64,000 bases of DNA from a virus (IMGVR_UViG_3300037485_000206:1867-65866); one strand, 5' to 3'; positions 10,791-64,000 are shown, numbered from the stretch's first letter. The notes: generated by a model from the letters alone, not told the origin. A program made the numbers and translations.

Positions 10791-10802
10791 TAGGAGTGCC
10801 TC

Positions 10803-12067: not shown

Positions 12068-12068
12068 C

Positions 12069-12365: not shown

Positions 12366-12367
12366 TC

Positions 12368-12622: not shown

Positions 12623-12623
12623 A

Positions 12624-13147: not shown

Positions 13148-13156
13148 GGAATCATC

Positions 13157-15204: not shown

Positions 15205-15205
15205 G

Positions 15206-15595: not shown

Positions 15596-15604
15596 GGAGG
15601 CCAT

Positions 15605-15769: not shown

Positions 15770-15772
15770 ATC

Positions 15773-16665: not shown

Positions 16666-16666
16666 C

Positions 16667-17080: not shown

Positions 17081-17088
17081 GGAATACC

Positions 17089-17658: not shown

Positions 17659-17667
17659 GGAAACATC

Positions 17668-17847
17668 ATGGCAGCAACTTTCCCCGTTGGTAGCACCGTC
17701 AAGATCAACGCTATCGTTCCAGAAGGCCCAGTCAAAAAGATTCGTTTCAACGACGACAGCCTGATCGAGTATCTGGTGACTTGGGTAGACATTGACGGCG
17801 TTTCACAAGAGCGTTGGTTCTTGGAAGATTCATTGGTTGCTGCGTAA
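17668..17847 (+). CDS. small SH3-like hypothetical protein, absent from ORF track
   Basis: MAATFPVGSTVK...YLVTWVD...ERWFLEDSL; AAGGA RBS. Confidence 0.65.
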   Translation: MAATFPVGSTVKINAIVPEGPVKKIRFNDDSLIEYLVTWVDIDGVSQERWFLEDSLVAA

Positions 17848-17864
17848 CCCTTTAAGGGAAAACC

Positions 17865-18413
17865 ATGCTATCAGCCATTGTTGGCCCTCTCAGTTGGGCA
17901 GTAGGTGACGGCACTGCCGTCGCTGCCACTACCACGCAAACCTCGTTGTTGACGAGTACCGCTGCCACGGGTAAGTGGGCTATGCCCGGAGGGTATTTCA
18001 CCGCCCCCGGTCAAATGCTACGGCTCTCGGCGTCTGGGCGCATCTCAACTCCGGCGGCCACCCAAGGCAATATCACATTTGCAGTCGCTGTTGGTGCAGT
18101 AAACGTCTGCGTGACGCCTACGTTTGTGTCGCTTGCTTCCCAGACAAACATTTCATGGCAGTTGTATTGGCTGCTGACTTGTCGGGCAGTTGGTGATGGT
18201 ACGCTGACGACCTTTATATGTTCGGGCAATTTTGAAACAGCGTTGGTGTCAGCTACTAACACCAATAACTTGATACCTGCTACTGCTCCAGCGGTGGGTA
18301 ATGGCTGCAACACCAATACCGCCGCGAACGTCGATCTTCTTGTAACTTGGTCGAACGCGACGGCTGGCAATTCTATTCAACTACATCAGTACCTGCTTGA
18401 ATCTGTAGTTTAA
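17865..18413 (+). CDS. beta-rich structural protein
   Basis: 182-aa ORF with RBS. Confidence 0.65.
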   Translation: MLSAIVGPLSWAVGDGTAVAATTTQTSLLTSTAATGKWAMPGGYFTAPGQMLRLSASGRISTPAATQGNITFAVAVGAVNVCVTPTFVSLASQTNISWQLYWLLTCRAVGDGTLTTFICSGNFETALVSATNTNNLIPATAPAVGNGCNTNTAANVDLLVTWSNATAGNSIQLHQYLLESVV

Positions 18414-18441
18414 GCCAGCGTAGGCACGGGAGAGGTGAACC

Positions 18442-43894: not shown

Positions 43895-44057
43895 GCTCGT
43901 CACGAATGCCCGGGATCGCCCGGGCATTCAACATCTTCAGCTTCAGTGCTTCGCGTAGCCCCAACTCGCGAATCAGGGCGGTATCTAGGCAAGGGATAAA
44001 GAACCCGTCGCCCGGGTCTAGCTCAGTCCACGGATAGTGGATCCGAAGTTTCACCAT
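43842..44057 (-). CDS. small putative DNA-binding protein (YPWTELDPGDGFFIP)
   Basis: Recognisable YP-W/F...GD-x-FF-x-P motif; GGAGG RBS. Confidence 0.6.
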   Translation of the reverse strand: MVKLRIHYPWTELDPGDGFFIPCLDTALIRELGLREALKLKMLNARAIPGIRDELIGVWFYLQLGATAPST

Positions 44058-46959
44058 CGCCTCCGATCAGTTCTGCGCCCTCGTCGTCTTCCTGCATGGT
44101 GGTCTTCCTGCGGCTGATCTTCAGCGCAGCCACGCGCATCTGCGGCCCCTTGGTCTTCGAGGTCATGTTCTTCTTGGGCATATGCGTGACCACGAACATA
44201 TCGGCCAGTTGCCGCTTGAAGTCCGTATAGCCGAAGCTCATTGACGCACAGTACGCCTTGAGCATCCCCTCCTCGATGTAGTAGTCGATGTGCTCCGGGG
44301 TAACGTCATGCTCGACCCGCCCCATGATGGACGAGCGCGTCAGCGACTGATCGACCTCCCTCTCCTCCCCAAGCGTAGTAATCAAACGCTTGAGCGCGTC
44401 GTCGTAGCGCACCACGATCATCTTGCCGTAGTTGTCGCGGGTATAGGCGTTCAGTACATCCTCGGCGGTACGCGCACTGCCCTTGATGTTGATCCGCATA
44501 TTCTCAACACACTCCTTGAATGTGTTCATGATCTCGCGCATGGGTAGCTCGATAATCCCTGCATGAGTCTTATTGAACAAGATCCCCGCAGCGAGCCCCG
44601 CCCCGATGCCGCCCACCCAAAACCGCTCGTCGTTGGTAGCCCCGAAGTCTTTGAAGACTTGCCGAACGCAGTCAGGAACCAGCGTCTTCAACAGGTCAAC
44701 ATTCTTCGCCATGTAATCGACCATCATGTGGCCTGCCACAGCATAGTTATGCTGCAAGGATTTGATGATCTCGATCTCGTGTGGCTCCCACTTTAGAACA
44801 TCAGTCCATGTGAATTCCAGCAGTCGGCGCAGTTCACCCTCGGCTGCGTGCTTGCGTCCACCTGTCAGACTATCTACAGCGTGGGTGTTCGAGGACATGA
44901 TCGCCACCGTCATCCACGTAGACAGGTTCAGGCGTTCCTTGTTGGAGCCAGACTCCATGCGCTCCTTGCCCTGCCCCTCAGTCATGTCCAGCAGAAACTC
45001 GGGGAACCACTCGAAGTCCTTGCGGTTCTTGCTGGTGATCTCATCAGTGATCAGGGGGATGCTGCCCAGCAGCCCCAAGCGCTGCTGCATGGCAACAGGC
45101 GATGTGCCCTTGCCTGTACGGTAGCGAACTGGGTGGCCCCAGATAGATGCGGCGGCTTCCAGCGCCAGCGACTTACCCGTGCCAGACTCTGTCGAGCCGC
45201 AGTGATACGTCATCCCGTACAACCCTGTGAAGCGCATCAGTGGGGCCGAAGCTCCTGCCAACATAATAGCCAGATGGCTATACATCTTCTTGCGGATAAG
45301 AAGATTGATACATTCCCGCCAACCTTCGATGGTCCCCGCAGGTTTGGTATAGGCGTTCTGGTTCTGCAATTCTTTCATGGGGACGGTGAGCGGACCATTC
45401 TTGGAATAGATGCGCCCAGAGTAGACGAACGTATCGTCTTCCTGCCAGCCGTAACTCGATGGAACCTTGACGGGAGCCCTGCCGCTACTGGCCTCCTCCA
45501 CGCACTGCCTGACGTAGGCGAACAGGTTCACATCGTTGCCTGACCCGATGGCCGCGATGATGTTCTGCTCGGCCAGCGCCTTGACCGTCTCGTCCTTGCT
45601 GACCACCGCACGCTGCGGCAGCGTGATCTGGAGCACGCCTTCGTTGGGCTTGATCGCCATCATGTGGACGGTGTGTACGCCTTGGCAGTTGAGGATGTCC
45701 ACGACAAATAGATCGAACGGCAGCAACAGAATCTGGCGCTTGACCTTATTCCCGGCAGCATCTTCGTCGGTCTTCTCCATGTAGACGCCGCCCTTGGCCC
45801 CGTAAGCAAACCCCTTGGGGGGCGTGGGACGAATGACTTTGACGACTTCATCAGGGATCGACGGGCTGTCTGACGGCAGCACGACCTCGATCTCTTTCTC
45901 CTCGGTATCAAGCGCTACCTCACGCCCAAGCGCCAGCGGGTTGGTGATCTTGCCGAAGTGTGGACAGGTATGGCACAGACCCGGGTTCTCGCTCTCCAAC
46001 TTTGTGCAGGGATACGGCCCCTTGATCTGGGCAAGCTTGGCCTGCATCCGATCCTCGTCGTAGGGGTGCAACTTGGACAGCCACCTGACTGCCTTGTCTC
46101 CATCCGTACAGACCTTGGCGATGCTCAACCAGCCACGCCACGCTGGCTCCATGCCTTCTTCCGCAGCGTTCTCGACGTAGTGCTGAAGCTGAGCGCACCC
46201 AGTACCGGCCTTGGTTGCGTTGAGGATCTTCTTGAAACTCGTCACGGAGTTCTCGAACATCTTGACGGCAGACGCTGAGGGCAGTGCCTTGGGGCGCTCC
46301 CCCAGCAGACTCAACGCGGACACTGTCGGTACTGGCGGCAGCGCGGTTAGCTTGCCGGTGATGAAAGCGCTGATCACATCGAAGTCGAAGATGCTGCCTT
46401 CAGACAACAGCACCACGTGGCGAGGCTCGCCGTACTTCTCTTTGAAGTTGGTCGTGCCGGGGATCCGCAGAACCCGCGCTGCATCCGCCGTCACCGTCAT
46501 GTCGATGGCAAGCTTCTCTTGCTTGCACAAGCGCTTCAGATTCTCAGCAATCGGCTTCCATGCGTCGATGGAAATCGCGTCATGCAGCGGCCAGTAACAG
46601 TGCAGCCCACCACCCGAGCCGACGATCCACGGACGCCCGAACTGATCCAGCCCAGTCTCGGTGAGGAACGCGCTGAGTGCAAGCGCTGCCTGCTTCTTCG
46701 AGGCGTACCCATCCATATCGATGAAGAACGCCCGGATGAACTGCGCGTTGGCTGCGGTGCGCTTGCCTGATTTTTCAAACGTCGAGAGCGCGAAGTATGC
46801 GTTCTTGTTGTCCGATACCCAGTTGTCTACGGCAGGATAGATTTCATTGAGGTCTGTGACGAATAGGTGTTCTTTTTTTACTGTGGATAGCTCTGCCGCG
46901 CAATACAGCCCGTGTTGCGGAGACGGCAAAACAACCGCTAGAAACTCAAGCGGGTTCAT
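44023..46959 (-). CDS. primase-helicase (AEP/RepB-like primase, Cys cluster, DUF927, P-loop)
   Basis: FIDMD, SGGGLHCYW, RVLRIPGT, C..CxxCPH, SGTGKS, TDEIT. Confidence 0.85.
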   Translation of the reverse strand: MNPLEFLAVVLPSPQHGLYCAAELSTVKKEHLFVTDLNEIYPAVDNWVSDNKNAYFALSTFEKSGKRTAANAQFIRAFFIDMDGYASKKQAALALSAFLTETGLDQFGRPWIVGSGGGLHCYWPLHDAISIDAWKPIAENLKRLCKQEKLAIDMTVTADAARVLRIPGTTNFKEKYGEPRHVVLLSEGSIFDFDVISAFITGKLTALPPVPTVSALSLLGERPKALPSASAVKMFENSVTSFKKILNATKAGTGCAQLQHYVENAAEEGMEPAWRGWLSIAKVCTDGDKAVRWLSKLHPYDEDRMQAKLAQIKGPYPCTKLESENPGLCHTCPHFGKITNPLALGREVALDTEEKEIEVVLPSDSPSIPDEVVKVIRPTPPKGFAYGAKGGVYMEKTDEDAAGNKVKRQILLLPFDLFVVDILNCQGVHTVHMMAIKPNEGVLQITLPQRAVVSKDETVKALAEQNIIAAIGSGNDVNLFAYVRQCVEEASSGRAPVKVPSSYGWQEDDTFVYSGRIYSKNGPLTVPMKELQNQNAYTKPAGTIEGWRECINLLIRKKMYSHLAIMLAGASAPLMRFTGLYGMTYHCGSTESGTGKSLALEAAASIWGHPVRYRTGKGTSPVAMQQRLGLLGSIPLITDEITSKNRKDFEWFPEFLLDMTEGQGKERMESGSNKERLNLSTWMTVAIMSSNTHAVDSLTGGRKHAAEGELRRLLEFTWTDVLKWEPHEIEIIKSLQHNYAVAGHMMVDYMAKNVDLLKTLVPDCVRQVFKDFGATNDERFWVGGIGAGLAAGILFNKTHAGIIELPMREIMNTFKECVENMRINIKGSARTAEDVLNAYTRDNYGKMIVVRYDDALKRLITTLGEEREVDQSLTRSSIMGRVEHDVTPEHIDYYIEEGMLKAYCASMSFGYTDFKRQLADMFVVTHMPKKNMTSKTKGPQMRVAALKISRRKTTMQEDDEGAELIGGDGETSDPLSVD

Positions 46960-46975
46960 GTCGGTCCTTAGCGGG

Positions 46976-47176
46976 TCAGTCGAATAGGCGCATCTGGCGG
47001 GGATCTTCTTCCTTTGGTTGCGCTCTTTCTAGCGCCAGTGTGAACTCGTCAAGCAAGTCGTCCACTTTTTTTCGGGACTCAAGACTTAAGTTCAGATGCA
47101 TAAAACGCCCAATGTCTTCCAGCAGCTCTTTTTGAAGCTTTCTTCGCAGTTCCATTTCCTGTTCTTCAGGCGTCAT
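46976..47176 (-). CDS. hypothetical protein
   Basis: ATGA overlap; ends QMRLFD, a clamp-binding-like motif. Confidence 0.6.
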   Translation of the reverse strand: MTPEEQEMELRRKLQKELLEDIGRFMHLNLSLESRKKVDDLLDEFTLALERAQPKEEDPRQMRLFD

Positions 47177-47451
47177 GGCGTCAGGTTGTATTCTTTGCAT
47201 ATCAGTCTCCATGCCTCGTCGGCAGTTGGTGTGTTCTTAAGGATGTTCAGCAGCATCTCGGCGCGTTGCTCGTAGGCCGGGAAAATCTCCCCGCCCAAGA
47301 ACCAGTTGTAAACAGTCTGGCGAGTTACGCCCAGCGCCTTAGCGATGCGAACGACGGAAAAGTCGCGATTGATGGCCCACCGCCCTAGCTGGTTCCCCAG
47401 CGTCTTGGGGCAGTTGGCAATCGCGTTGATGGTTTTCTGTGAGTAAGGCAT
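47173..47451 (-). CDS. Cro/XRE-like HTH regulator
   Basis: VVRIAKALGVTRQTVYNWFLG. Confidence 0.8.
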   Translation of the reverse strand: MPYSQKTINAIANCPKTLGNQLGRWAINRDFSVVRIAKALGVTRQTVYNWFLGGEIFPAYEQRAEMLLNILKNTPTADEAWRLICKEYNLTP

Positions 47452-47496
47452 ATGTGGGCGGGGCCAGCAAACCTCGCTGGCCCCAAACCTTTCTAG

Positions 47497-48471
47497 TTAC
47501 TCGTCGTCCCAGTCGGACACTACGTCGGCCAAGCTCTTCTTGGCGGGGACGGCGGATGGCTTTGCTTCTGCCTTGCGAACGGCAGGCTCGGCTGGCTCCT
47601 CGGCAGGCTCCTCGGCAGGCTCTTCAGCCTTGGGCTTGGCCGCTGCCTTCTTAGGCGCAGGGGCTGGCGCTTCCTCCTCTTCCTCGACTACTGGCGCAGC
47701 CTTGGGTTTGGTTCCACCCAGACTGAGTGGGGCTGGCTTCACACCGTCCACTGCCGAGACGTTCAGCGCCACGGCGTTGATGGCTTCAGGCGACTTGCCC
47801 TTCTCCGCAGCGATGGCGTACTCGTCGTCGGTCAGCCAACGCATTGCCTTGAAGTGAAGCTTGGGAGCCTCGGCCTTGGTATCGAACTTCATCCGGGTCA
47901 CGACGGTAGCGGGATCGACGCTCTGCGCCACGAGCCAGCGAGCATATGCTTGCAGCGGATGGTTGTCACCCTCGGATTTCCCGAAGATCGACGTTGCTGG
48001 CAGCGGCAACTGCATGACATCACTGCCCTCGATGTCGTTCGCCAAGACCACCGCCAGACGCTGCTGGTAGCGGCAGGCACGGCTCTGACCATTACCGGAA
48101 CCCGCCACGTTCTGGGGGCAGGAGGTGCAAGTCTTCGACTGAGGCTCCTTGACGCCTGCGTCAGGCTTGTCGCCGTCCGTGCTCCAGCAGTTGGGCGCAG
48201 CGGCAGCGGCCTCTGGGTCGTACTTGTTCATGTAGAAGATCCGGGCGACCTTGGCCGCTGCCTTGACGATCACCACATCCAAGAAGCGCTCGTCGATAGC
48301 GCCGACTTCCTTGCCGTCAGACATCAGGCGAAACACGCCGCCCTTGATGGAGATGCGCTTACCGCCGCTACCGCCGCTGTTACCAGCCAGCGCCTTGGCG
48401 ACATCCGAGAGCCCTGCTGCCCGTGCAAATGCCGGGATGCTTGATGGGTTGAACACTGCTACGTTACTCAT
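47497..48471 (-). CDS. putative ssDNA-binding protein
   Basis: RISIKGGVF, CWS...CTSCPQN...CR, acidic aromatic tail DWDDE. Confidence 0.65.
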   Translation of the reverse strand: MSNVAVFNPSSIPAFARAAGLSDVAKALAGNSGGSGGKRISIKGGVFRLMSDGKEVGAIDERFLDVVIVKAAAKVARIFYMNKYDPEAAAAAPNCWSTDGDKPDAGVKEPQSKTCTSCPQNVAGSGNGQSRACRYQQRLAVVLANDIEGSDVMQLPLPATSIFGKSEGDNHPLQAYARWLVAQSVDPATVVTRMKFDTKAEAPKLHFKAMRWLTDDEYAIAAEKGKSPEAINAVALNVSAVDGVKPAPLSLGGTKPKAAPVVEEEEEAPAPAPKKAAAKPKAEEPAEEPAEEPAEPAVRKAEAKPSAVPAKKSLADVVSDWDDE

Positions 48472-48479
48472 GATTTTCC

Positions 48480-48887
48480 TTACTTGATGGTTGGCTTGCG
48501 TACAGAAATGTCGTACTCCGAATTGGAGTTCAGCCCGGGCGGTACGACCCCGGGGTTGTCTTCGAGAAAGACCTTCATATTGGTCTGGTTGATTCGCCGC
48601 TCGAACAGGTCGAGCGCATCCTGCTCAGTCACGAACTTCTTGAAACTATCCCAGTCGTTCGTCGTGAACCGCGTCTTGACCGACATGACGACAGTGCCCT
48701 GCGGGGTATTGACCGAAGTCACGCCCAGCGCTTGCATCTGTTCTTTCATGGCGCTCTTGAGCGCGTCTTGCTGTTCCTTCAGCACCTCGACCTGAGTGTC
48801 GTAGACCTTGGTGAGCGTCTCGATCTCGGTGCGGATGCGTCGGTAAACCTTTGCCAACTTGTCCATTGGCACGATGTCATCTGTCAT
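48480..48887 (-). CDS. conserved replication-module coiled-coil protein
   Basis: DWDSFKKFV...LFERRI...PPGLN. Confidence 0.75.
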   Translation of the reverse strand: MTDDIVPMDKLAKVYRRIRTEIETLTKVYDTQVEVLKEQQDALKSAMKEQMQALGVTSVNTPQGTVVMSVKTRFTTNDWDSFKKFVTEQDALDLFERRINQTNMKVFLEDNPGVVPPGLNSNSEYDISVRKPTIK

Positions 48888-48919
48888 TTTGCTTCTCCTT
48901 TATTTGTCTAGCGTTGGAC

Positions 48920-48947
48920 ATTCTACATGGAACGAAAGTGCGTGCAA
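48920..48947 (-). promoter_or_regulatory. putative sigma70 promoter with adjacent operator-like palindrome
   Basis: TTGCAC-16 nt-TAGAAT on the - strand. Confidence 0.6.
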
Positions 48948-48955
48948 CCCCTCCT

Positions 48956-50515
48956 TCAATCTTTTATTGCTTCGTCGAACATCTGCGTGAGCAGTGAGTG
49001 ATCGCTTACCTTTTGAGCAAGCGCCTTGAACATCTTCTTCTCGATGGGCGAGCCTTGGATGTGGATGACCGTGACCTTGTCGGCGGTCTGACCCTTGCGA
49101 TCTGAGCGTGCGATGCACTGGACGTACTGCTCGACGCTCATCAATGGGCCGTAGAAAACAACCGTATCAGCCGCCGTCAACGTGATGCCGTGGGCCGACG
49201 CTTGAGGCTGCATGACTAACACCCGTGGCTCTTTCTCGTGCTGGAACCTGCGGATGATGTCGCTGCGTTTGCTTGGGGACACGCTGCCTTGGATCACCTC
49301 GGCGTGGATCCCTCGCTTGAGTAGGTGGGCGTGGATGGCGGCTATGCTGCTGCTGAACATGGCGAAGATCAGAACCTTGCGGTTCGTCTCGCCGAGGATC
49401 TCCTCCAGCACCGCCAGCCTCGGCGTGGCGTCGAACTCGACCACGCCCTTGTCATCGCTGTAAGCAGACCCGCAACTGATCTGTAAGAGTTTGCTCACCC
49501 CAGCAGCGGCGTTGACCGCGCTGATTACCTCTCCCGCTGCCTGAATCATCATCTGATCCTTGAGCAAGTTGTAGTACTTGGCTTGCTGGGGCGTGAGGGG
49601 AATATCTCGTGAGACTGTAGTAACTGGCGGAAGGTCGAGGCACTGTTCTTTGGTGTACCGGATCGCTGGCTGCAGTGCCTCGAACACTAGGTCAGGTGCG
49701 TTGGCCTTCGGTGCCCACTTGAAGCTGGTGATCTTGTTCATGGTCAGATCACGCCACGCCGACAGGTACTTGGGAATGCCGGAGGGATTCACCAGCTTCG
49801 CCAAGCCAAACGCATCGACAGGTGACTGCGATGCGGGGGTGCCGGTCATCATCCACAGGTGTGTGTCAGGCTTGATGATTCCGGCCAGCGCTTTCCAGCG
49901 GCGCGTAGATGGCGTCTTGTAAGCGTTCGCTTCGTCCACGATGACGAGGTCGAACCGCCCATCCGCATTGATCTCACTTGCGATCAGGTCGAGCCCCTCG
50001 TAGTTGATAACCACGAACTCGAAGTCCTCTTGGATCATCTCGATGCGCCGCGCTGCCTTGGGGTGGTGGGCAATAACAATGCTGCGGTGCAATATGCTGT
50101 TGCTCAAGTCCTGTACCCACGCCGACTGCATGATCGACAGGGGGCAAAGAATCAAGCAGCGCCGAACTTCCTTGCGCTTCATCAGGTAGTCCGCTGCCCA
50201 TAACGCTGAGAGCGTCTTGCCTGTCCCCGGCTCCGAGAATACGAACGCTCTGCGGTTGAGCGTCAAGAAGGCAGCGGTCTCGATCTGGTGTTCCATCGGC
50301 ACGTAGCGTCCGGGCCAGTCGTATTTCTTTGTGATGGGTGAGGGAACATTCTTTACCCCCAGATTCTTTAGGACTCGTACCTCATCCAATCCCCAGAAGA
50401 CAGCAACGTCATACCCTCCGTCATCCCGCTTGACGGCCTTACTCTTAGGAATGATGCTGTACTTGTCTGGGTTTCTGGTTTTGAATATGAGCGCCTTGTT
50501 GTCAAGGATGTGCAT
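48956..50515 (-). CDS. SNF2-family helicase
   Basis: EPGTGKT, VDEA, MTGTP, HGITLTAA, Q..AR..RKGQ. Confidence 0.9.
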   Translation of the reverse strand: MHILDNKALIFKTRNPDKYSIIPKSKAVKRDDGGYDVAVFWGLDEVRVLKNLGVKNVPSPITKKYDWPGRYVPMEHQIETAAFLTLNRRAFVFSEPGTGKTLSALWAADYLMKRKEVRRCLILCPLSIMQSAWVQDLSNSILHRSIVIAHHPKAARRIEMIQEDFEFVVINYEGLDLIASEINADGRFDLVIVDEANAYKTPSTRRWKALAGIIKPDTHLWMMTGTPASQSPVDAFGLAKLVNPSGIPKYLSAWRDLTMNKITSFKWAPKANAPDLVFEALQPAIRYTKEQCLDLPPVTTVSRDIPLTPQQAKYYNLLKDQMMIQAAGEVISAVNAAAGVSKLLQISCGSAYSDDKGVVEFDATPRLAVLEEILGETNRKVLIFAMFSSSIAAIHAHLLKRGIHAEVIQGSVSPSKRSDIIRRFQHEKEPRVLVMQPQASAHGITLTAADTVVFYGPLMSVEQYVQCIARSDRKGQTADKVTVIHIQGSPIEKKMFKALAQKVSDHSLLTQMFDEAIKD

Positions 50516-57888: not shown

Positions 57889-58049
57889 TTCGGATTCCTT
57901 TGGATTTGTTGGTACTGGGTCAAGACCCACTTGTCGCCGAGTATTCTTATGGACGCAACCCACTTGCGTTGGTTGGCGCGGTTCTGTTCCCGCGAGATGT
58001 AGTCCACATTGAAAAGGCGTCGGACACGTTTGAGTTGGTCGATGTTCAT
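57885..58049 (-). CDS. small hypothetical protein
   Basis: RRLF...NQRKWVASIRILGDKW; AAGGAG RBS. Confidence 0.7.
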   Translation of the reverse strand: MNIDQLKRVRRLFNVDYISREQNRANQRKWVASIRILGDKWVLTQYQQIQRNPK

Positions 58050-58079
58050 TGTTTCTCCTTGGGTGACGATTGTCAATCG

Positions 58080-58787
58080 TTAGACGTTCAATCCGTGCCA
58101 TGTTTTTGGTACGGCGGCTTTGTCGGGCAACTCTCTGATTGCCTTCATTGCCTTACGCATCTTCGTAATACGCTCGGCTCTTTTATCTGTGGGAAGAATG
58201 TTCTGTTCTCTTACTTCACGGGCTAACTCCTTCTCGGTTCTGGCGAGCAGCCTCGCACGGTTCTTGTCTGTGTCTGCCACGGGATCGAGGCGCTCGAACA
58301 CGGACTTTGCACGAGCCTTCTCCTCCTTGGGTACGGCAGCGAACATGGCCCTGATGCGCGTCTTGATGTGCTCGGGAACCCAGTCCACCCAGTGGACTGC
58401 GCGGTTGGGCAACTTGAGTTCCTCAGCGAAGTTGCTGGGCATCCGTCCTACACCCGTCGTCTTGCGCTCGACCATGCGCTCGATCACCTTGTCGAGCACG
58501 AGCAGGTACGCCTGCAACGCCTCGACCTTCTCGGGCAGTCCCCCGTTGGGTTTGCCTTGTTGATAGTCGATCATGCCCTGCACGGTCTTGCGCTCGTACT
58601 TGGCTGGATTGATCAACTCCCGCCACAGGGTGGTGTGGTAGTGGTTGTGCAGTTTCTGCTGCTTGAGCACCTTCTTCTGCTCCAGCACCTTGGCCCTGAT
58701 GTGGTTCTCTAGTGGCTTGAGCAGTTTGCGTTTGGCGAGCCTGTTGTTGATCTCGTTGGGTGATAGGTCAACATAGTGCGTCTTCAT
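58080..58787 (-). CDS. basic hypothetical protein
   Basis: Long ORF; HWVDWVP; P.TWHGL end. Confidence 0.7.
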   Translation of the reverse strand: MKTHYVDLSPNEINNRLAKRKLLKPLENHIRAKVLEQKKVLKQQKLHNHYHTTLWRELINPAKYERKTVQGMIDYQQGKPNGGLPEKVEALQAYLLVLDKVIERMVERKTTGVGRMPSNFAEELKLPNRAVHWVDWVPEHIKTRIRAMFAAVPKEEKARAKSVFERLDPVADTDKNRARLLARTEKELAREVREQNILPTDKRAERITKMRKAMKAIRELPDKAAVPKTWHGLNV

Positions 58788-58932
58788 CTTCTGCCTCCTC
58801 TTCCTCGTTTGCGAGGCGTTCCTCCTCCGCCTCTTGTTCTGCAAGCCACTCCGCTTCCTCGTCCGCGTCGGTGTACTCCCACGCTGGGTCTGAGTCAGGT
58901 GGGTCTGGGCAGTCGCGCCATGAGCCGCTCAT
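58768..58932 (-). CDS. small highly acidic protein
   Basis: GGAGG RBS; D/E-rich. Confidence 0.6.
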   Translation of the reverse strand: MSGSWRDCPDPPDSDPAWEYTDADEEAEWLAEQEAEEERLANEEEEAEDEDALC

Positions 58933-59150
58933 AGTGTCACCTCCACTAATGCGTCGGTCTCGATCCACACCTTGGCTCCGCAGGACAGCGGAGACTCGGG
59001 GCTATACACCACACGGCTCGGGCCGTGGATCTGCACCTCGTGTGCGTAGGTGTTGCTCTTGTAGGTCTTAACGGTGAGCACCGGATCGTTGGCCCCCGTC
59101 TTGGCATTGGCCTTGATCACGTGCTGGTTGACGTGGATGATCGTTTTCAT
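58929..59150 (-). CDS. conserved small phage protein (MKTIIHVNQHVIKAN...LSCGAKVWIET)
   Basis: Recognisable widespread phage family; ATGA coupling. Confidence 0.75.
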   Translation of the reverse strand: MKTIIHVNQHVIKANAKTGANDPVLTVKTYKSNTYAHEVQIHGPSRVVYSPESPLSCGAKVWIETDALVEVTL

Positions 59151-59323
59151 TTCTTCCCCTTGGGGGGCTTCACGCCGACGCGGGACAGGGTGTCCTTCAT
59201 CTCCTGCCACGCCTTGTTCTCTCGGGCAATGGAGGCCTTAGCCAAGGCCATCATCTTCTCCTCTTCCTCGCGGATGAGTTTGCCCATGCATTCCAACTTC
59301 TTGTCGCTGTCTTTCTTGTCCAT
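59147..59323 (-). CDS. small charged protein (MDKKDSDKK...), absent from ORF track
   Basis: 58 aa; AGGAG RBS. Confidence 0.6.
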   Translation of the reverse strand: MDKKDSDKKLECMGKLIREEEEKMMALAKASIARENKAWQEMKDTLSRVGVKPPKGKK

Positions 59324-59341
59324 CTCTCTTCTCCTAGTTAA

Positions 59342-59364
59342 AAGGGGGACACCATGTCCCCCTT
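59342..59364. repeat. family-A palindrome variant AAGGGGGACA-CCA-TGTCCCCCTT
   Basis: Both arms altered, symmetry kept. Confidence 0.85.
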
Positions 59365-59369
59365 ACGAA

Positions 59370-60344
59370 TTACACCGTGATCAGATCAAAAGCCTTCTGC
59401 TTCAGATCATCGCCCTGTCCCCACAACGCTGACGCGATGCGGTTCTCCTCGCTCTGGCTGCGGATGTGCTGGTCAGCGTACTCGGTGACCGCGTTGAACC
59501 ATCCCCAGCCCGTCTCCCATGCGCTGTCGAGCGTGCTGCCCTTGCCGTCGCCACCGAACAGGCCGAGCACGCGGTTGTATCCAGCCGACGCACGGATCGC
59601 GTCCTCGTCCTTCTTGCCCGCCTTGAACAGGCGAAGCGTGAGGTCTTGCGCCTTCTCAGCGTTGACCTTGATAGCCGTGAGGTTGCGTGCCATCAGCATG
59701 AACGCACCGAACTCCTCGTGCGCTGCCTCGACTGCCTTGCGAGCATCGTTGGGTTGGAACTTACTGCGATGAGTAGTGCGGTGGCAAGCCGCAGTTCCCC
59801 GAGCCAACTGGAAGGTGTTGTTGCACACCGTGCGAACGCCAGTCACCCGGCTCTCCGTAGCCAGCGAACCATCCGCCGAGGTGGACAGCAGCACGTAGGG
59901 CACGACCTTGTCGCGGTGATTGCCGTACCCCAGATCCACCGCGTCCGACAACTTGGCGGTGGCGAAGTACTTCCCGCCGCTGAACAGCACGCCAGCCGAC
60001 TCGATGGTCAGGCCACCCTGATCCGTCCAGTCACGGAAGAACTCCAGCACTTCCTTGGGCTGCACGACCTTGTAAGAAGCCGACACCACGCCGAGGTGCT
60101 TCTTGTTGTCCGAACGGAAGAGCACGACCTTGTCCTCGATCTTGCCCATGTCCTCGGCGGACTGGCCGCGCTCGGTGGCGAAGCGAACGAAGCCGCGCTG
60201 CACTTCGTAGTCCATGCCAGCCTGCTTCTGCCACTCCTCGACAGACGCGCCGCGAGTCATGAGTTGGCCGAGACCGTGCCACTCACGCTCCGTAGATGCG
60301 TACTGAGCGGTTCCGTTGCTGTTGAATGCGATTTGATGAGCCAT
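59370..60344 (-). CDS. DUF932 family protein
   Basis: WHGLG, LGVVSASYKVVQP, SAGVL..G, STSADGS, VRTVCNNT, NAVTEYADQ. Confidence 0.85.
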   Translation of the reverse strand: MAHQIAFNSNGTAQYASTEREWHGLGQLMTRGASVEEWQKQAGMDYEVQRGFVRFATERGQSAEDMGKIEDKVVLFRSDNKKHLGVVSASYKVVQPKEVLEFFRDWTDQGGLTIESAGVLFSGGKYFATAKLSDAVDLGYGNHRDKVVPYVLLSTSADGSLATESRVTGVRTVCNNTFQLARGTAACHRTTHRSKFQPNDARKAVEAAHEEFGAFMLMARNLTAIKVNAEKAQDLTLRLFKAGKKDEDAIRASAGYNRVLGLFGGDGKGSTLDSAWETGWGWFNAVTEYADQHIRSQSEENRIASALWGQGDDLKQKAFDLITV

Positions 60345-60356
60345 TTCTATCTCCTT

Positions 60357-60386
60357 GGGTTGTGCCAGTGTCCGACTGGCGGCGGT
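60357..60386 (-). repeat. family-B hairpin element, copy 1 (covarying stem GCCAGT/ACTGGC)
   Basis: GTGCCAGT-GTCCG-ACTGGC-GGCGGT. Confidence 0.9.
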
Positions 60387-60404
60387 AACGCTTGGATGTC
60401 TAAC

Positions 60405-60434
60405 ATTATACATGCTCCCACAGGTGTGGGAGCA
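60405..60434 (-). promoter_or_regulatory. TATAAT box with a 10-bp inverted repeat where the -35 should be
   Basis: ATTATA at 60405-60410; TGCTCCCACA-GG-TGTGGGAGCA at 60413-60434. Confidence 0.5.
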
Positions 60435-60444
60435 GGGTTCTTAC

Positions 60445-61119
60445 TTAGATCTTGAGGCTAACGGTGACGTTGTTGAGCACCTCCTCGATGACCTCGCGCA
60501 CCGCGTCCTCGTCGATCTCGCCCACCGGATGGATGTCGTCATGGTCGTACTCGGAGTTGTGATCGGAGACTGCCTCCTCTGCTTCTGCCCGTGCCACCTC
60601 CCTAGCAGCCTCGCGCACCGCGTCAACGAACTCGCCGCTGTCGGCGAGCGCGGTGACCAGTGGGTTGAGGAACTCATCACCCATCGTGTGCTTGTCGATG
60701 ATCTTGATCACCGCAAGGCGGAACTGCTCGCTCGTCAGATCCAGCGTTGCCGTAGTGGCGGGACGCTGCGCGTTTTCCAACGCATCGATGCGCTTGGCGT
60801 CGTCCCTCTGGTCAATCCCGAGGCTCTCGATCTGAACGGCGCGGGCGGACAGACGCTGCTCCAACTCCGTGATGCGTCGTGCGTTCTCCATCTGGTCGTT
60901 GTCTTGGCAGTTCATAAGACTGCCTACTTGCTCTTCCAACTTCTCGATGCGCTCGGTCAGGGCAAGCAGCGCTACCGTCAGGTCGGTCTCCAGCCGCTCG
61001 ATGCGCTCGGTCAGGGTGAACACCTTGGCCTCGACACGCTTGTCGATGTGCTCCGTCAGGTTAGCGAGCATGGCATCGAGGATGCCGCCGAGGACGTTGA
61101 TGTTGGTGTTTGCATTCAT
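60445..61119 (-). CDS. coiled-coil acidic early protein
   Basis: LTERIERLE repeats; GGAG RBS. Confidence 0.7.
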   Translation of the reverse strand: MNANTNINVLGGILDAMLANLTEHIDKRVEAKVFTLTERIERLETDLTVALLALTERIEKLEEQVGSLMNCQDNDQMENARRITELEQRLSARAVQIESLGIDQRDDAKRIDALENAQRPATTATLDLTSEQFRLAVIKIIDKHTMGDEFLNPLVTALADSGEFVDAVREAAREVARAEAEEAVSDHNSEYDHDDIHPVGEIDEDAVREVIEEVLNNVTVSLKI

Positions 61120-61147
61120 GGTTCGTATCTCCAAAGGTAGTAACAAG

Positions 61148-61180
61148 GTGCCGGTGACCGACCGGCGGCGGTGTATCAAT
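61148..61180 (-). repeat. family-B hairpin element, copy 2
   Basis: GTGCCGGT-GACCG-ACCGGC-GGCGGTGTATCAAT. Confidence 0.9.
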
Positions 61181-61562
61181 CCTCGTCATCGCCGCCCATC
61201 GCCTCGTCCCAAGGGTCATCGCTGCCCCCGGGTTGTGCGTCGAACGTGGCGTGGGGTTCAAGTGTGCCGTCCTCGTTGACTGCGCTGACGCCGCCGTCGA
61301 GATCGATCTCTTGGTTCTCTCCCGCAGTTGCGTGAGTCTCAAGCAGCGCCTTGACTGCTTCATCCAAGAACCCCTGCCGCTCGTCTGGCGCGAACTCACC
61401 ATCGCCACGAGTGCTGGCTGCATACACATGATCGCCCCCATGATCGGGATAGAACGCGCTGAAGCACCCATGCCTAAGCCGCAGGTATCCGATCTGCGTG
61501 TCGTCTAGGTAGACGTTGTATTGCTCAGGCATTGCCGAGCACGTTTGTTCAATCTTCACCAT
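61176..61562 (-). CDS. early hypothetical protein
   Basis: TCSAMPEQY...GYLRLRHG; AGGAG RBS. Confidence 0.7.
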   Translation of the reverse strand: MVKIEQTCSAMPEQYNVYLDDTQIGYLRLRHGCFSAFYPDHGGDHVYAASTRGDGEFAPDERQGFLDEAVKALLETHATAGENQEIDLDGGVSAVNEDGTLEPHATFDAQPGGSDDPWDEAMGGDDED

Positions 61563-61575
61563 CTCATTTCTCCTA

Positions 61576-61606
61576 GTGGTTGTGCCGGTGACCGACCGGC
61601 GGCGGT
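61576..61606 (-). repeat. family-B hairpin element, copy 3
   Basis: GTGGTTGTGCCGGT-GACCG-ACCGGC-GGCGGT. Confidence 0.9.
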
Positions 61607-61641
61607 CTAGCAGTAAGACCCCAAATAGCGTATTTAGAGTC

Positions 61642-61875
61642 CTAGCCTTTTCTCAGGTACTGTGCGTCTTGTAGCGCTCGCTCGTAGCCTCGCACATATG
61701 AAACCAGCGCGTGGTACAGCCCGATCTCGCTTCTGGCTTGCAGCATGGTGCGGTTGTCGTAGTGGATGACCCAGATACCATCCTCGCGCCGGAAGGGCTT
61801 GTACTCGCTGGTGCTGGTGCATGACAGCGCAGCGAGGCGGTCGATAACTAGGGGGATTCTTTTCGCGTCTGCCAT
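61642..61875 (-). CDS. early hypothetical protein (MADAKRIP...)
   Basis: GGAG RBS. Confidence 0.6.
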   Translation of the reverse strand: MADAKRIPLVIDRLAALSCTSTSEYKPFRREDGIWVIHYDNRTMLQARSEIGLYHALVSYVRGYERALQDAQYLRKG

Positions 61876-61876
61876 A

Positions 61877-61981
61877 TCAGTTCTCCAAGTAGCCAAGGAA
61901 TAGAGCGACGAGCGTCGCGAGGAATGCAGCAGCAATCAACCAGTCGGTGATGTGGTGCCACGTATTTTTGGTGTCCTTCAT
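61877..61981 (-). CDS. 34-aa single-TM peptide, absent from ORF track
   Basis: MKDTKNTWHHITDWLIAAAFLATLVALFLGYLEN; AGGAG RBS. Confidence 0.6.
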   Translation of the reverse strand: MKDTKNTWHHITDWLIAAAFLATLVALFLGYLEN

Positions 61982-62011
61982 TGCTTTCTCCTGTTGTTGA
62001 TAGTAGACATT

Positions 62012-62038
62012 GAACCGGGGACATCATGTCCCCGGTTC
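62012..62038. repeat. family-A palindrome (13-bp arms, centre C)
   Basis: GAACCGGGGACAT-C-ATGTCCCCGGTTC. Confidence 0.95.
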
Positions 62039-62044
62039 CCTCCG

Positions 62045-62659
62045 TTAAGCGCAGACCAGCCGCTTGACCTCGGTCTTGATGACCTCCTCGCGCACCTCCA
62101 CCACCTCGATGCGGCATGACTCGTTGTCCTCCTTGACGTAGCCCGTGATGAACATGCGGATCGTCAGGGGTTTCTTGAAGAAGTCGTCGAGTTCCCATAC
62201 GCGGTCGCTTTTGCGTAGCCACTTGACCGATGGGTGCGATGCGCTGATGTGCAGCGGTACTTCCTTGGTGAACTCATACGACCGTCCCCGGTGGTTGTTG
62301 GAGTAGGTCTGATCCTTCGTGGGCATCGCCGTCCACTCGGGCGTGAGGTACAGGGAGAGCAAGCGCAGCAGTCGCTTGTCGTCCTTGATGCTGTCCAGAT
62401 CATTGATCACGATGCTGATGCTCACCACCGATGCGTACTGGCTCGCGTCCACGTAGATGTGCTGGTTGGGGCCGACGTAGTCCATCGCTTTACCGCACCA
62501 CCCACGTTCCTTCTTATACGCGGCAGGGATCGCGTCGAACACACGCTTCACCTCGGGGTGCGTGATGTTGTCCGAGCGCACGGTTTGCATGTGCCGCGCT
62601 GCGGCGTTGCTGATGCGGTCGTTCTTGATGCGCTGCGCGAAAGTTTGAGTCTTAGCCAT
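62045..62659 (-). CDS. early hypothetical protein
   Basis: 204 aa; AAGGAG RBS; YVKED..SCRI.V C-terminus. Confidence 0.75.
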   Translation of the reverse strand: MAKTQTFAQRIKNDRISNAAARHMQTVRSDNITHPEVKRVFDAIPAAYKKERGWCGKAMDYVGPNQHIYVDASQYASVVSISIVINDLDSIKDDKRLLRLLSLYLTPEWTAMPTKDQTYSNNHRGRSYEFTKEVPLHISASHPSVKWLRKSDRVWELDDFFKKPLTIRMFITGYVKEDNESCRIEVVEVREEVIKTEVKRLVCA

Positions 62660-62686
62660 TTCAATTCTCCTTGGGCGTTGCCCGTT

Positions 62687-62732
62687 GTGGTTGTGCCGGT
62701 GTCCGACCGGCGGCGGTGTATCAATAGATCAG
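62687..62732 (-). repeat. family-B element, copy 4 (46 bp identical to copy 5)
   Basis: GTGGTTGTGCCGGTGTCCGACCGGCGGCGGTGTATCAATAGATCAG. Confidence 0.95.
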
Positions 62733-63175
62733 AACTCTTCGTTTGGTGACAGGTTGTGGCAGTAGTCCGCCACGCCCGAGTCGTAGCCGCGCCTGTACAT
62801 ATGGCGCAGATCGTCTTGCTCGTACTTGCAGTCCTCGATGCCCTCCTCCACCCCGTCGCGATAGCCGATAGCGAACGCCTTGAGTTGGTCATAAGGGACG
62901 ATCTTGATCTGCGCGACCCGTGCTTGGGCTATTGCTTCGCGCTTCATGTCGTCGTAGTAGCCCGAGCCATCGAGGAAGTGCTGCGGGCTGTCGTAGTTGC
63001 AGCCATGCAGATAGGCTTCGCCCAGCGTGTGGCCCATGCGTTGCGCCTCGACACGCACGACGAAGGCATCGTCTGGCCTGTCCAGATCGCGGCTCGCCGT
63101 TGTGACGATCTCGAAGCCCGACACCTTCTCGCGCTTGACCGCGCCGAACTCATCCCAGTTGTTGAATGCATACAT
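62729..63175 (-). CDS. early hypothetical protein
   Basis: LGEAYLHGCNY...GYYDDM; YRRGYDSG; RBS. Confidence 0.75.
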   Translation of the reverse strand: MYAFNNWDEFGAVKREKVSGFEIVTTASRDLDRPDDAFVVRVEAQRMGHTLGEAYLHGCNYDSPQHFLDGSGYYDDMKREAIAQARVAQIKIVPYDQLKAFAIGYRDGVEEGIEDCKYEQDDLRHMYRRGYDSGVADYCHNLSPNEEF

Positions 63176-63189
63176 CTCAGTTCTCCTAA

Positions 63190-63235
63190 GTGGTTGTGCC
63201 GGTGTCCGACCGGCGGCGGTGTATCAATAGATCAG
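63190..63235 (-). repeat. family-B element, copy 5
   Basis: Identical 46-mer to 62687-62732. Confidence 0.95.
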
Positions 63236-63579
63236 CGTCCGTAGTCGCCCTTCACGTATTCCCACGGCGAGATGTTCGCTTGCTTGTCTGCCTTTTGCTG
63301 CTCGAAGTACTTGATGGCATCCACCAAGCGTTGGGCGTACCGCTCGTTGACCTCCATCGCCTTGGCGAAGAGCACCGATGCCTTCTCTTCTTGCTCGGCG
63401 CACTCAGCCTCGGTGATGGTGGGCACGACGACCACCTCGATGCCCACTACGTGCCCGTACTCGTCCTTCAGCACCGCCAAGGTTGGCGCATCGATGAGCA
63501 GGGGTGCGTTCGAGGGGTGGAACGTCTTGCCGTCCCACCAGTTGGTGTTGAACGTATTGAACGCGATGTAGTTCTTCAT
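63232..63579 (-). CDS. early hypothetical protein (MKNYIAFNTF...)
   Basis: AAGGAG RBS. Confidence 0.7.
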   Translation of the reverse strand: MKNYIAFNTFNTNWWDGKTFHPSNAPLLIDAPTLAVLKDEYGHVVGIEVVVVPTITEAECAEQEEKASVLFAKAMEVNERYAQRLVDAIKYFEQQKADKQANISPWEYVKGDYGR

Positions 63580-63590
63580 TTCATTTCTCC

Positions 63591-63800
63591 TTAGTTCACC
63601 ATTACCCGCGCCGTGGTCAGCGCGTCGTCTTTGTGGGTTGTGGAATATTGAGCGGGGATTTGCTCGATACCGTTCTTGAACAGCCGCACCAGATACTCCT
63701 CCCATTCGGGATCCCAATACACCTTGGCCTCCCAAGATACTGTGGTGGTGCCCACCTTATGTGTGCGCTGCACGGTATCGATTAACTCGGGCTTCTTCAT
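63591..63800 (-). CDS. early hypothetical protein
   Basis: AKVYWDPEWEEYLVRLF...KDDALTTA; RBS. Confidence 0.7.
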   Translation of the reverse strand: MKKPELIDTVQRTHKVGTTTVSWEAKVYWDPEWEEYLVRLFKNGIEQIPAQYSTTHKDDALTTARVMVN

Positions 63801-63819
63801 CTCTCTTCTCCTTGGGTTG

Positions 63820-63844
63820 AACCGGGGACACCATGTCCCCGGTT
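63820..63844. repeat. family-A palindrome (11-bp arms, CCA centre)
   Basis: AACCGGGGACA-CCA-TGTCCCCGGTT. Confidence 0.95.
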
Positions 63845-63854
63845 TGTTGGTTGA

Positions 63855-64000
63855 TCAGTAATGCACGCCAGCACGCTGGACGAAGCCGTCAGTCTCGCGC
63901 TTTGCCTTGGCCTTGGCATAGAGGGCAACCACTACGCCTCCCGGCTCGATGTGGCGCACATCGGTCTCGTCGCCGTCGATGACAGGCCAGCCCCTGAACG
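63855..64000 (-). CDS. C-terminus of a GP88-like protein (partial)
   Basis: Manual translation: FRGWPVIDGDETDVRHIEPGGVVVALYAKAKAKRETDGFV. Confidence 0.6.
   Translation of the reverse strand, partial: FRGWPVIDGDETDVRHIEPGGVVVALYAKAKAKRETDGFVQRAGVHY

Follow-up and report, generated by a model that had tools for sequence, protein, structure and literature searches.

Five copies of a structured motif in a phage early operon

The subject of this analysis is a short stem-loop motif, here called family B, which recurs between small early genes of a metagenome-assembled phage whose DNA is best represented in a sediment metagenome. We analysed a stretch of 64,000 nucleotides (nt) of this phage (IMGVR_UViG_3300037485_000206:1867-65866), referred to as the window; coordinates are those of the window unless given as genome positions, and family B copies are read on the - strand. 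A window scan with ACCGCCGCCGGTCGGWCACCGGCAC, allowing up to three mismatches, gave five matches, all on the - strand, four of them without a mismatch and one (60362-60386) with two, against a mean of 0.00 and a maximum of 0 in 100 dinucleotide-preserving shuffles. No sixth copy was found in the whole 65,866-nt contig when five substitutions were allowed, and a chance origin of the five copies is ruled out by the shuffles together with this contig scan. All five lie in intergenic gaps of 56-100 nt, 4-59 nt past the stop codon of the preceding - strand open reading frame (ORF), with a GGAG-type ribosome-binding site (RBS) 5-20 nt and a start codon 17-33 nt downstream. The original prediction had described five copies in the same orientation on the coding strand upstream of five early genes, and both the number and the placement are confirmed here. 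The family B consensus is (A)CCGCC-GCCRGT-CGGWC-ACYGGC-AC, where the loop was observed to be CGGAC in three copies and CGGTC in two.

The first copy in the direction of transcription, B1 (63196-63220, no mismatch, 44.9 bits with covariance model R1), consists of an A, the flank CCG (63219-63217), a CC linker, the stem strand GCCGGT (63214-63209), the loop CGGAC (63208-63204), the stem strand ACCGGC (63203-63198) and AC. It is followed by the leader AACCACTT, the sequence AGGAGA and the ATG (63175) of an ORF of 148 amino acids (aa). B2 (62693-62717, no mismatch, 44.9 bits) precedes a 204-aa ORF whose ATG lies at 62659, the distance from motif end to start codon being 33 nt, and it shares 46 identical nt with B1, the preceding stop codon included. 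B3 (61582-61606, loop CGGTC, no mismatch, 44.5 bits) is located ahead of a 128-aa ORF (ATG 61562). B4 (61148-61172, loop CGGTC, no mismatch, 48.0 bits) begins 4 nt past the stop codon of the preceding ORF and precedes a 224-aa coiled-coil-like ORF (ATG 61119). The most distal copy, B5 (60362-60386, loop CGGAC, two mismatches, 42.7 bits), belongs to a DUF932 gene (ATG 60344), and a hairpin CTCCCACA..TGTGGGAG and a TATAAT hexamer are found upstream of it, the hexamer ending 19 nt before CCGCC.

The 6-bp hairpin was present in the minimum-energy fold of all five copies, B1 among them, and no T-run was seen after the stem in the window copies. In B5 the G:C pair at stem position 4 is replaced by A:T, which confirms the swap GCCAGT/ACTGGC that the original prediction had placed at 60364. 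The AC(AACC) described after the stem was observed in four of the five copies; in B4 the stem is followed by ACCTTG, the leader past AC being CTTGTTAC and not AACC.

Conservation and covariation of the stem

A single swapped pair had been put forward as evidence of selection on pairing, and the comparison with other phages goes far beyond it. At least twelve distinct 6-bp stems were found in IMG/VR contigs (all member counts from this database are lower bounds), and every one of them is fully paired. Besides GCCGGT, the paired intergenic stems are GCCTGT, GCCAGT, ACCGGT, GAAGGT, GACGGT, TGAAGT, TCGCGT, GAGTGT, GTCAGT, GACCGT and GCGCGT. When the three inner pairs were left free (41 loci), the new fully paired members were GCCTGT/ACAGGC in L106, L114 and L118, together with L101, which lies inside an ORF. 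Leaving the three outer pairs free (29 loci) gave ACCGGT/ACCGGT in six loci, GAAGGT/ACCTTC in L126 and GACGGT/ACCGTC in L135. The other new matches of these two scans retain 0-2 of the three pairs and are located in G+C-rich coding DNA. With the four outer pairs free at least 119 loci were obtained; among the matches listed, 71 are new and unique, and six of these are fully paired (TGAAGT, TCGCGT, GAGTGT, GTCAGT, GACCGT with one G:U, and GCGCGT). A scan with flank and loop left free gave, among the matches listed, mostly chance matches.

Matches were also classed by context only, as lying inside or not inside an ORF of at least 150 codons, which avoids picking members by their pairing. Among the matches listed in the four-pair scan there are 78 unique non-canonical 24-mers: those not in an ORF comprise 8 paired and 5 unpaired sequences and those inside an ORF 3 paired and 62 unpaired (Fisher p = 7.4e-6). 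By eye, the three paired 24-mers assigned to ORFs are intergenic, with a spurious long frame running across them. In an alignment of 33 distinct sequences (A2), 297 of 297 cells pair and five of the nine pairs change on both sides; none of 500 shuffles reached this covariation, and when the partners were slid by 1-3 columns only 18-49% of the cells paired. Covariation, whose absence from a larger alignment would have told against the original prediction, is present, and to judge from these comparisons the stem structure is under selection.

Across members, near-constancy was observed for the flank CCGCC, for CGG in the loop, for both loop-proximal pairs and for the A on the 3' side. The loop-proximal pairs are G:C and U:A in all 33 sequences and were invariant even in a scan that left those pairs free. 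The constancy of loop and 5' flank and the orientation with transcription, claimed earlier for the window, were seen both there and in other phages. G:U wobble pairs, as read on the coding strand, occur in L347, L482, L479 and L490, and these mildly favour RNA or the coding strand over a template-strand hairpin.

A candidate pseudoknot between flank and loop

The flank CCG is complementary to the first three loop bases, CGG. The linker that follows the flank is CC, or TT in L138 and L139, and the last two loop bases are any base followed by C or T. In H-type pseudoknots a short first loop can span a 6-bp helix. The sequences suggest that flank and loop may pair in this way, a pairing absent from the original prediction. 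The result would be a compact 24-nt H-type pseudoknot in which a 2-nt linker joins helix 1 (3 bp) to helix 2 (6 bp) and the second loop has 2 nt.

When flank bases 1-3 and loop bases 1-4 were left free, a complete scan gave 41 loci. In these the flank GCG was found with the loop CGC in L415 and with CGT in L482, and TCG was found with CGG in L479; the flank CGG with the loop CCG occurs in L428 and L483, both ambiguous and both in the 3' end of an ORF. GCG with CGT is also seen in L491, and TCG with CGG in L490. All three flank-loop pairs are kept in seven of the 20 unique non-canonical matches, against about 1-2.5 expected. A metagenome scan for a flank base 1 other than C gave five loci, four of which are compatible with pairing (GCG/CGT twice and TCG/CGG twice); the fifth, GCG/CGG, is incompatible with it and lies inside coding sequence. 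Across the 33 aligned sequences, flank position 1 and loop position 3 form C:G in 29, U:G in two, G:C in one and G:U in one. One base has been lost from both flank and loop in a weak second copy of another phage (G001, described below), where CG stands with CG.

Leader context and neighbouring structures

Context was summarised over 34 motif-bearing members. All five window copies and the other members are oriented like their flanking genes, and a Shine-Dalgarno (SD) sequence and start codon are found within 60 nt downstream in 29 of the 34. A+T makes up 60% of the 12 nt upstream of the motif (locus mean 44%), and position -1 is A in 24 of 34 members; the 12 nt downstream are G-poor and C/A-rich (72% A+C). 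The motif looks like the 5' edge of a portable translation-initiation leader.

At the orthologous AAA_24 ATPase gene the motif lies upstream, without a promoter, in 5 of 77 loci. A promoter-like site of the form TTGnnn-N16-18-TAnnnT followed by a different covarying hairpin was observed in 34 of the 77, and 38 have no promoter-like site by the strict pattern. The different hairpin starts 5-8 nt past the -10 hexamer in 22 of its 34 loci, which is the predicted 5' end of the messenger RNA (mRNA). It is found in L142-L215 about 30-60 nt upstream of the start codon (for example at about 2440-2480 of L172), with covarying stems of 6-7 bp (CGCTTC/GAAGCG, CGTTCC/GGAACG, CGTTAC/GTAACG, CTGCGC/GCGCAG and others) and a conserved loop of 16-18 nt of the type GAAC-GA--CC-GAC. 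There is no Rfam match at this hairpin, which is a separate candidate leader RNA.

In L126, L299, L339 and L301 a G+C-rich hairpin followed by T6-7 begins 3-7 nt past the motif. The first three of these loci are orthologous; the hairpin and its T-run lie between the genes for a ClpP-type prohead protease and an HK97-type major capsid protein, end 2-7 nt before the capsid RBS and covary independently of the motif. The gap of about 90 nt in these loci holds three consecutive structures, namely GCGC-TTCTC-GCGC, the family B motif and the covarying hairpin with T6-7. No alternative pairing was seen between the motif and SD sequences or terminator hairpins, the 3-7-nt gap included. The presence of a terminator-like hairpin directly after the motif in four lineages makes a promoter at this place unlikely.

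A G+C-rich lineage (L479, L490 and L493) has the motif after a -10-like TATGAT or TAGAGT hexamer. Its leader is longer than 100 nt and contains, after the motif, a second hairpin with compensatory changes (CACCTCTCG..CGAGGTG versus CACCTGACA..GCCAGGTG).

Occurrence across phages and databases

The exact motif was found in 16 other IMG/VR contigs, one copy in each, and in 14 of them it stands ahead of a 224-aa AAA_24 ATPase gene. The genes behind the motif in other phages include those for RecT, the AAA_24 ATPase, the major capsid protein and others, and are mutually unrelated. The other motif-bearing records compared with this phage (G000) are G001 (62.5 kb), which has an additional degenerate second copy besides its strong one, G003 (41 kb), G004 (41.8 kb), G005 and the provirus G002. 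G000 shares almost no proteins with G001, G003 and G004: the ORFs of at least 30 aa common to G000, G001 and G003/G004 comprise only tail, lysis/structural and polyvalent-protein pieces at BLASTP E <= 0.05, a test that a very short arginine-rich motif could escape. The motif-bearing loci span 44-68% G+C, and their hosts therefore probably differ.

The Rfam search proposed in the original prediction yielded no family for the motif: Rfam 15 gave no match in window positions 58000-64000 (cmscan, E <= 1), nor was there a match at the motif in six motif-bearing or related loci. Among GenBank phage isolates (50,697 records, 39-nt query) there were 26 weak matches, with a best E-value of 0.6 and none covering 80% or more of the query; all but one lie beneath annotated genes and the remaining record is unannotated. 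No credible copy was thus found in cultured phages. Word searches of the literature, which cannot find a sequence motif, returned no description of it. A single scan of 185,579 bacterial species genomes gave 22 loci, of which only two look like true members: L236, from Allopusillimonas soli (Burkholderiales) in the same context as the provirus G002, and L250, which lies near a contig end of an actinomycete metagenome-assembled genome. L237 has the exact canonical 24-mer in G+C-rich DNA and is of ambiguous status, three Actinacidiphila copies lie in repeated, probably coding sequence, and the remaining loci keep 4-5 of the six pairs in G+C-rich coding DNA. The motif is an undescribed compact structured element common to unrelated uncultured phages.

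Relatives of this phage were represented by 80 loci around DNA polymerases 73-86% identical to its own. None carries a copy, by a six-substitution scan or by the covariance model, and a comparative analysis inside the phage's own family is therefore impossible. The early genes of the relatives are tightly packed, with ordinary sigma-70-like promoters. The genes after B1-B4 gave a single partial match of 60 aa among these loci, to the B1 gene, and the other small ORFs near B1-B4 gave none, whereas the DUF932 gene and later genes do have homologues there. The five-copy state is an exception of this phage and looks like a leader cassette that spread along with new early genes, because the relatives lack the motif, the genes behind B1-B4 are orphans and B1 and B2 share 46 nt.

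Tandem 24-nt repeats of the form CCCCT-GCCGGT-YCWRG-ACCGGC-AC, up to four in a row, were noticed in other viral contigs, at L445 (386-481), L367, L407, L437 and related loci. Their stem and 3' AC are like those of family B, but flank and loop differ, and they look like iterons or protein-binding arrays rather than leaders.

Organisation of the phage genome

The contig ends overlap by 210 nt, so that the genome is circular or terminally redundant, with a length of about 65.6 kb. The overlapping ends (genome 1-216 and 65657-65866) differ by one GCCTTG unit, present in three copies versus two; this short tandem repeat lies inside an ORF, and the difference is either population heterogeneity or an assembly artefact. 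On the + strand lie the genes for the large terminase (2335-3876) and for a polyvalent protein of 3151 aa that has an LPD38 domain (34439-43894); those for primase-helicase, helicase and DNA polymerase A are on the - strand, as is a long series of small early ORFs.

Window positions 59000-64000 contain no consensus sigma-70 promoter-like site, against 1.4 expected. The closest strong site (TAGACA-18-TATAAT, 11/12; - strand, genome 3468-3439) is separated from B1, which lies downstream of it, by about 4.4 kb. The family B copies therefore appear to sit inside one long early polycistron. A terminator-like hairpin (AGCCCACCTCGGTGGGCT and a T run) directly precedes this site (L494, genome 3439-3512, window about 1573-1646, - strand), and hairpin and site together are probably the start of the leftward early operon. 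A sigma-54 or sigma-70 reading of the motif itself was dropped by eye, the -12 element being absent and no consensus promoter lying in 59000-64000.

Other gaps of the same operon are occupied by a second intergenic family, family A, which consists of perfect palindromes (AACC)GGGGACA-NNN-TGTCCCC(GGTT) at positions equivalent to those of family B, just upstream of early - strand RBSs. Six occur in the window (230-246, 731-747, 1426-1442, 59345-59361, 62017-62033 and 63824-63840), against 0.27 expected, and two more lie outside it at genome positions of about 830 and 1270. The central triplet is found in either orientation, and the palindromes have no T-run after them. In L114 and L118 a family A-like hairpin, GTGGGACACCATGTCCCAC, stands 3 nt ahead of the family B motif. 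Between two family A palindromes lies an A+T-rich, non-coding block (about 300 nt; genome 1000-1290, outside the window and upstream of the wrap-around) with a TATATA-type low-complexity run, which could be an origin or a regulatory region.

Giant polyvalent proteins are encoded by all four complete motif-bearing phages: besides the 3151-aa protein of the window, G001 has one of 4418 aa (35976-49232), G003 one of 2700 aa (5566-13668) and G004 one of 2752 aa (12501-20759). Their domain sets differ and comprise LPD38, a DarB-like Eco57I-type methylase with SNF2/ResIII helicase, and ddrB-ParB with ART-PolyVal. No RNA polymerase signal was found in these proteins in Pfam, PHROGs, PDB sequences or the Atlas. 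The T7-like RNA polymerase family PF00940 was detected in none of five motif-bearing records, a result that is uninformative since control genomes were silent as well. The window protein matches only LPD38, with no PHROGs family, no PDB match and LPD-domain proteins as the nearest Atlas clusters; its residues 1-2340 match nothing named, and a very divergent polymerase there could escape notice.

Possible functions of the motif

Family B is a real gene-expression signal. Its copies, their placement and the covariation of the stem were observed across phages; transcription as RNA, processing, stabilisation and insulation are what we infer beyond them. Our preferred explanation, which we hold tentatively, is that family B may be a cis-acting structure in transcribed RNA, by which the cistron downstream is protected and insulated. 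The five copies would divide a long early polycistron lacking its own consensus promoter, and each leader would run from an A/U-rich stretch through the structure, a G-poor, C/A-rich spacer and the SD sequence to the start codon. The structure would serve as a stable 5'-proximal block for its cistron, most likely independently of any phage-specific protein. Once an endonuclease had cut the A/U-rich stretch, the new 5' end would be buried in the structure, which would shield the mRNA from 5'-end-dependent decay, and the structure would in addition keep the RBS from pairing with upstream coding sequence. A 5'-terminal stem-loop is a classical protection against 5'-end-dependent decay. Such protection and insulation would fit the position of the motif before genes needed in quantity, such as those for capsid, RecT and ATPase. 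The strongest parallel comes from the AAA_24 ATPase loci, in many of which another hairpin stands at the predicted 5' end of the mRNA, and the gene 32 mRNA of T4, compared below, is a phage precedent; that no phage-specific partner was found among the motif-bearing phages would suit it too.

Several observations weigh against this explanation. There is a single strong copy in each of the five other whole records (G001-G005) and exactly one in 31 of 32 further loci (248 kb), and one copy per phage looks more like a switch than a general stabiliser. A freely varying outer stem next to constant elements (flank, loop CGG, loop-proximal pairs and 3' A) fits a specific partner or ligand, or tight tertiary packing, and not a pure structural block. 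A -10-like hexamer is located 18-23 nt upstream of B5 and of the motif in the L218 and L479 types, which would leave about 12 unpaired 5' nt unless the RNA is processed. The folding energies of the 56-69-nt regions are ordinary when compared with shuffles (z -0.15 to -1.21), so that the case for structure is built on covariation and not on energy. The rows of A2 were partly picked because of their pairing, and for this reason the context-stratified test of the stem is the fairer one. The corresponding context-stratified test of flank and loop gave Fisher p = 0.2 with variation only at flank position 1; because of this value, and because only one of the three pairs varies, the pseudoknot is rated as suggestive.

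Protection and insulation explain the strict constancy and the single copies poorly, and both antitermination and a trans-acting binder stay live for this reason. In processive antitermination, which we regard as unlikely but worth keeping in view, the nascent RNA alone (as with HK022 put) or together with Nus factors or a small phage protein would bring about read-through of terminators. The hairpins with T6-7 located 3-7 nt after the motif in four loci would suit this, as would the independent covariation of motif and terminator hairpin in the three orthologous loci, the nut/put-like place of the B5, L218 and L479 types 18-23 nt after a -10-like hexamer, the one copy typical of each phage and the long family A hairpins that punctuate the early operon of the window; the missing shared phage protein fits a put-like direct action on RNA polymerase. 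However, a conditional terminator between prohead protease and capsid genes makes little sense, and a U-rich translational enhancer is an alternative for the hairpin and T-run before the capsid gene. Processive modification needs no five copies in 2.9 kb, the 3-7-nt gap offers no alternative pairing, the motif is unlike boxA/boxB and unlike put RNA, and an arginine-rich N-like protein common to the phages was not found. The boxB/nut-like site of the original prediction does not stand in its classical form, as loop and stem differ and there is no boxA-like spacer, although antitermination as such is retained here; a phage N-like factor recognising the hairpin is unsupported, no protein shared by the four complete motif-bearing phages having been found. 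The motif could instead serve as an operator at which an RNA-binding regulator acts in trans to repress or activate downstream translation; such a regulator could be a protein or small RNA of the host, or a small, fast-evolving phage protein. Constant single-stranded and junction nucleotides beside a free outer stem are the classic signature of a recognised hairpin, and the motif lies 5-20 nt upstream of the SD sequence and is present once in most phage genomes. We consider this quite improbable all the same: no shared protein was found at BLASTP E <= 0.05 beyond the tail, lysis and polyvalent pieces, the downstream genes are unrelated, and loci of 44-68% G+C point to differing hosts. A host regulator with its own sites is unlikely in particular, because the motif is nearly absent from the 185,579 species genomes, which would leave such a regulator without sites of its own.

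A role mainly as a recombination joint, that is, a boundary sequence for swaps of early cassettes with little role in expression, can coexist with protection and insulation and is by itself a poor candidate. The genes after B1-B4 have no homologues in the 80 relatives save for the 60-aa partial match, while DUF932 and later genes have them; the relatives carry no copies, B1 and B2 are identical over 46 nt, and the same 24-mer precedes unrelated genes in unrelated phages. Exchange driven by homology needs identity and not compensatory pair changes, however, and the many paired stem variants speak for structural selection; a sigma-70 promoter is not part of the motif either. It is more doubtful still that the motif is a tRNA-like minihelix whose stacked 9-bp helix and 3' A-C tail mimic an acceptor end. 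RNase P would then cleave at the junction of the CC linker with the first G and so split the polycistron. The basal pair is G:C in 29 of 33 sequences and the next bases are A in 33 and C in 31; in transfer RNA (tRNA) the discriminator base and C74 follow the acceptor helix, and the A and C of the motif match these positions. RNase P cleavage is also reported for viral tRNA-like pseudoknots and for intercistronic mRNA sites, and occurrence of the motif in unrelated phages and hosts would follow from the enzyme being universal. Against this, the third tail base is variable, so that there is no CCA, the helix would have 9 bp and not 12, a T-loop is absent, and recognition would not require the constant CGG/CCG or the constant G:C and U:A pairs. 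A small ligand-sensing pseudoknot, which like a riboswitch would report a host metabolite to single key phage genes, is a distant prospect. Its size and topology would resemble those of the smallest pseudoknot aptamers, constant junction nucleotides accompany covarying stems, and the motif is found both directly before SD sequences and before terminator-like hairpins, in phages of differing G+C content; but it has no alternative pairing to either of these, no Rfam match and almost no occurrence in bacterial genomes, and its downstream genes lack a common metabolic theme. Just as improbable is a signal at the DNA level, be it an N4-like hairpin or cruciform promoter, an alternative-sigma promoter or an operator for a dimeric protein. 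What could point to it is a repeat that keeps one orientation upstream of early genes and lies towards one end of the gene map, the absence of a consensus sigma-70 promoter in 59000-64000 and the virion-type protein at 34439-43894, with proteins of 2700-4418 aa in all four complete motif-bearing phages. Those giant proteins are polyvalent, however (LPD38, DarB-like methylase/helicase, ParB, ART), the 5-nt loop and the coding-strand wobbles are unlike N4 promoters, a promoter is unlikely ahead of the terminator-like hairpins that four lineages have 3-7 nt downstream, freely covarying arms and an asymmetric flank are unfit for a dimer operator, and most phages have one copy. The single-stranded DNA hairpin offered as an option in the original prediction is accordingly unsupported, given the undetected RNA polymerase, the wobbles on the coding strand and the terminator-like hairpins downstream. 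Finally, an unlikely extension of these ideas is that a self-sufficient 24-nt pseudoknot serves as a universal plug-in module of unrelated phages and, with no phage protein involved, works directly on a universal host machine. This may take the form of a put-like antiterminator that binds RNA polymerase, or of the RNase P-cut minihelix, which would leave a flush 5' hairpin.

Small unknown genes are dense in phage early regions, and how their expression is set in uncultured phages is little known. The motif described here is a very small, covariation-supported RNA element without an Rfam family or a credible copy among sequenced phage isolates, and it has spread to phages that have hardly any genes in common and whose base composition varies widely. 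If it acts without a phage protein, it would represent a general way to tune single cistrons in long operons, through mRNA protection, insulation or antitermination, and a compact portable part for synthetic operons. A put-like or RNase P module would, if real, rank with the smallest elements known in its class and offer operon engineering a ready-made part. The natural compensatory variants provide a clean experimental test set.

Comparison with known systems

Lambda nut and HK022 put sites are, like family B, oriented hairpins of early transcripts with a covarying stem and a constant loop, which can follow closely on a promoter or stand between genes, upstream of terminators. A boxB has a 5-bp stem and a purine-rich, GNRA-like pentaloop, with boxA a few nt upstream. 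The family B stem has 6 bp, and the 33 aligned sequences have a CGGNC loop, C being its first and fifth base; the CCGCC flank abuts the stem and seems to be paired with the loop, whereas the sequence further upstream varies and contains no boxA. A shared N-like protein was not found either, and five copies stand within 2.9 kb here. The HK022 put RNA, at about 70 nt, is much larger than the motif. The RNase III sites of T7, which correspond to the second option of the original prediction, share with family B the intercistronic position of an oriented structure that divides an early polycistron. The T7 hairpins are long and irregular, with about 20 bp or more (about two helical turns), and the family B stem of 6 bp (9 if stacked) is too short for RNase III.

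N4 promoters, as described in PMC4496689, have a 5-7 bp stem and a 3-nt loop and are recognised on the template strand by an injected virion RNA polymerase. Family B is similar to them in its small G+C-rich hairpins upstream of early genes, in a stem that is free to vary if paired and in the giant virion protein encoded by the phage. It differs in its 5-nt loop, its coding-strand wobbles, the undetected polymerase and the terminator-like hairpins that follow in four lineages. The PeSLs of T4-type phages are characterised in PMC4122927 as composite promoter/terminator motifs that mediate cassette exchange. On that description they too are short conserved motifs that flank small, fast-changing early ORFs and precede unrelated genes, and a plastic region of the same kind is found here, since variable small ORFs are flanked by the motif and relatives lack it. 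The apparent spread of the family B leader along with new early genes is reminiscent of this shuffling. A PeSL combines a sigma-70 early promoter with a terminator, whereas family B has no promoter-like site and has a conserved compensatory structure.

In T4 gene 32, according to PMC3014915, RNase E cuts all mRNA species at -71, just 5' of a leader pseudoknot at -67, and the processed mRNAs are the most stable T4 messages. That element belongs to one gene and nucleates autoregulation by gp32, whereas family B is smaller (24 nt) and precedes unrelated genes; autoregulation by the downstream product does not fit five different ORFs here and AAA_24 ATPase, RecT, major capsid and other genes elsewhere. 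The likeness to the gene 32 leaders of T4 and T2 lies in a compact coaxial H-type leader pseudoknot, suggested by covariation in the case of family B, which is followed by an unstructured spacer and the RBS. The RNase E cut in gene 32 falls 4 nt 5' of the structure, and it is at this side of the family B motif that the A/U-rich stretch is found.

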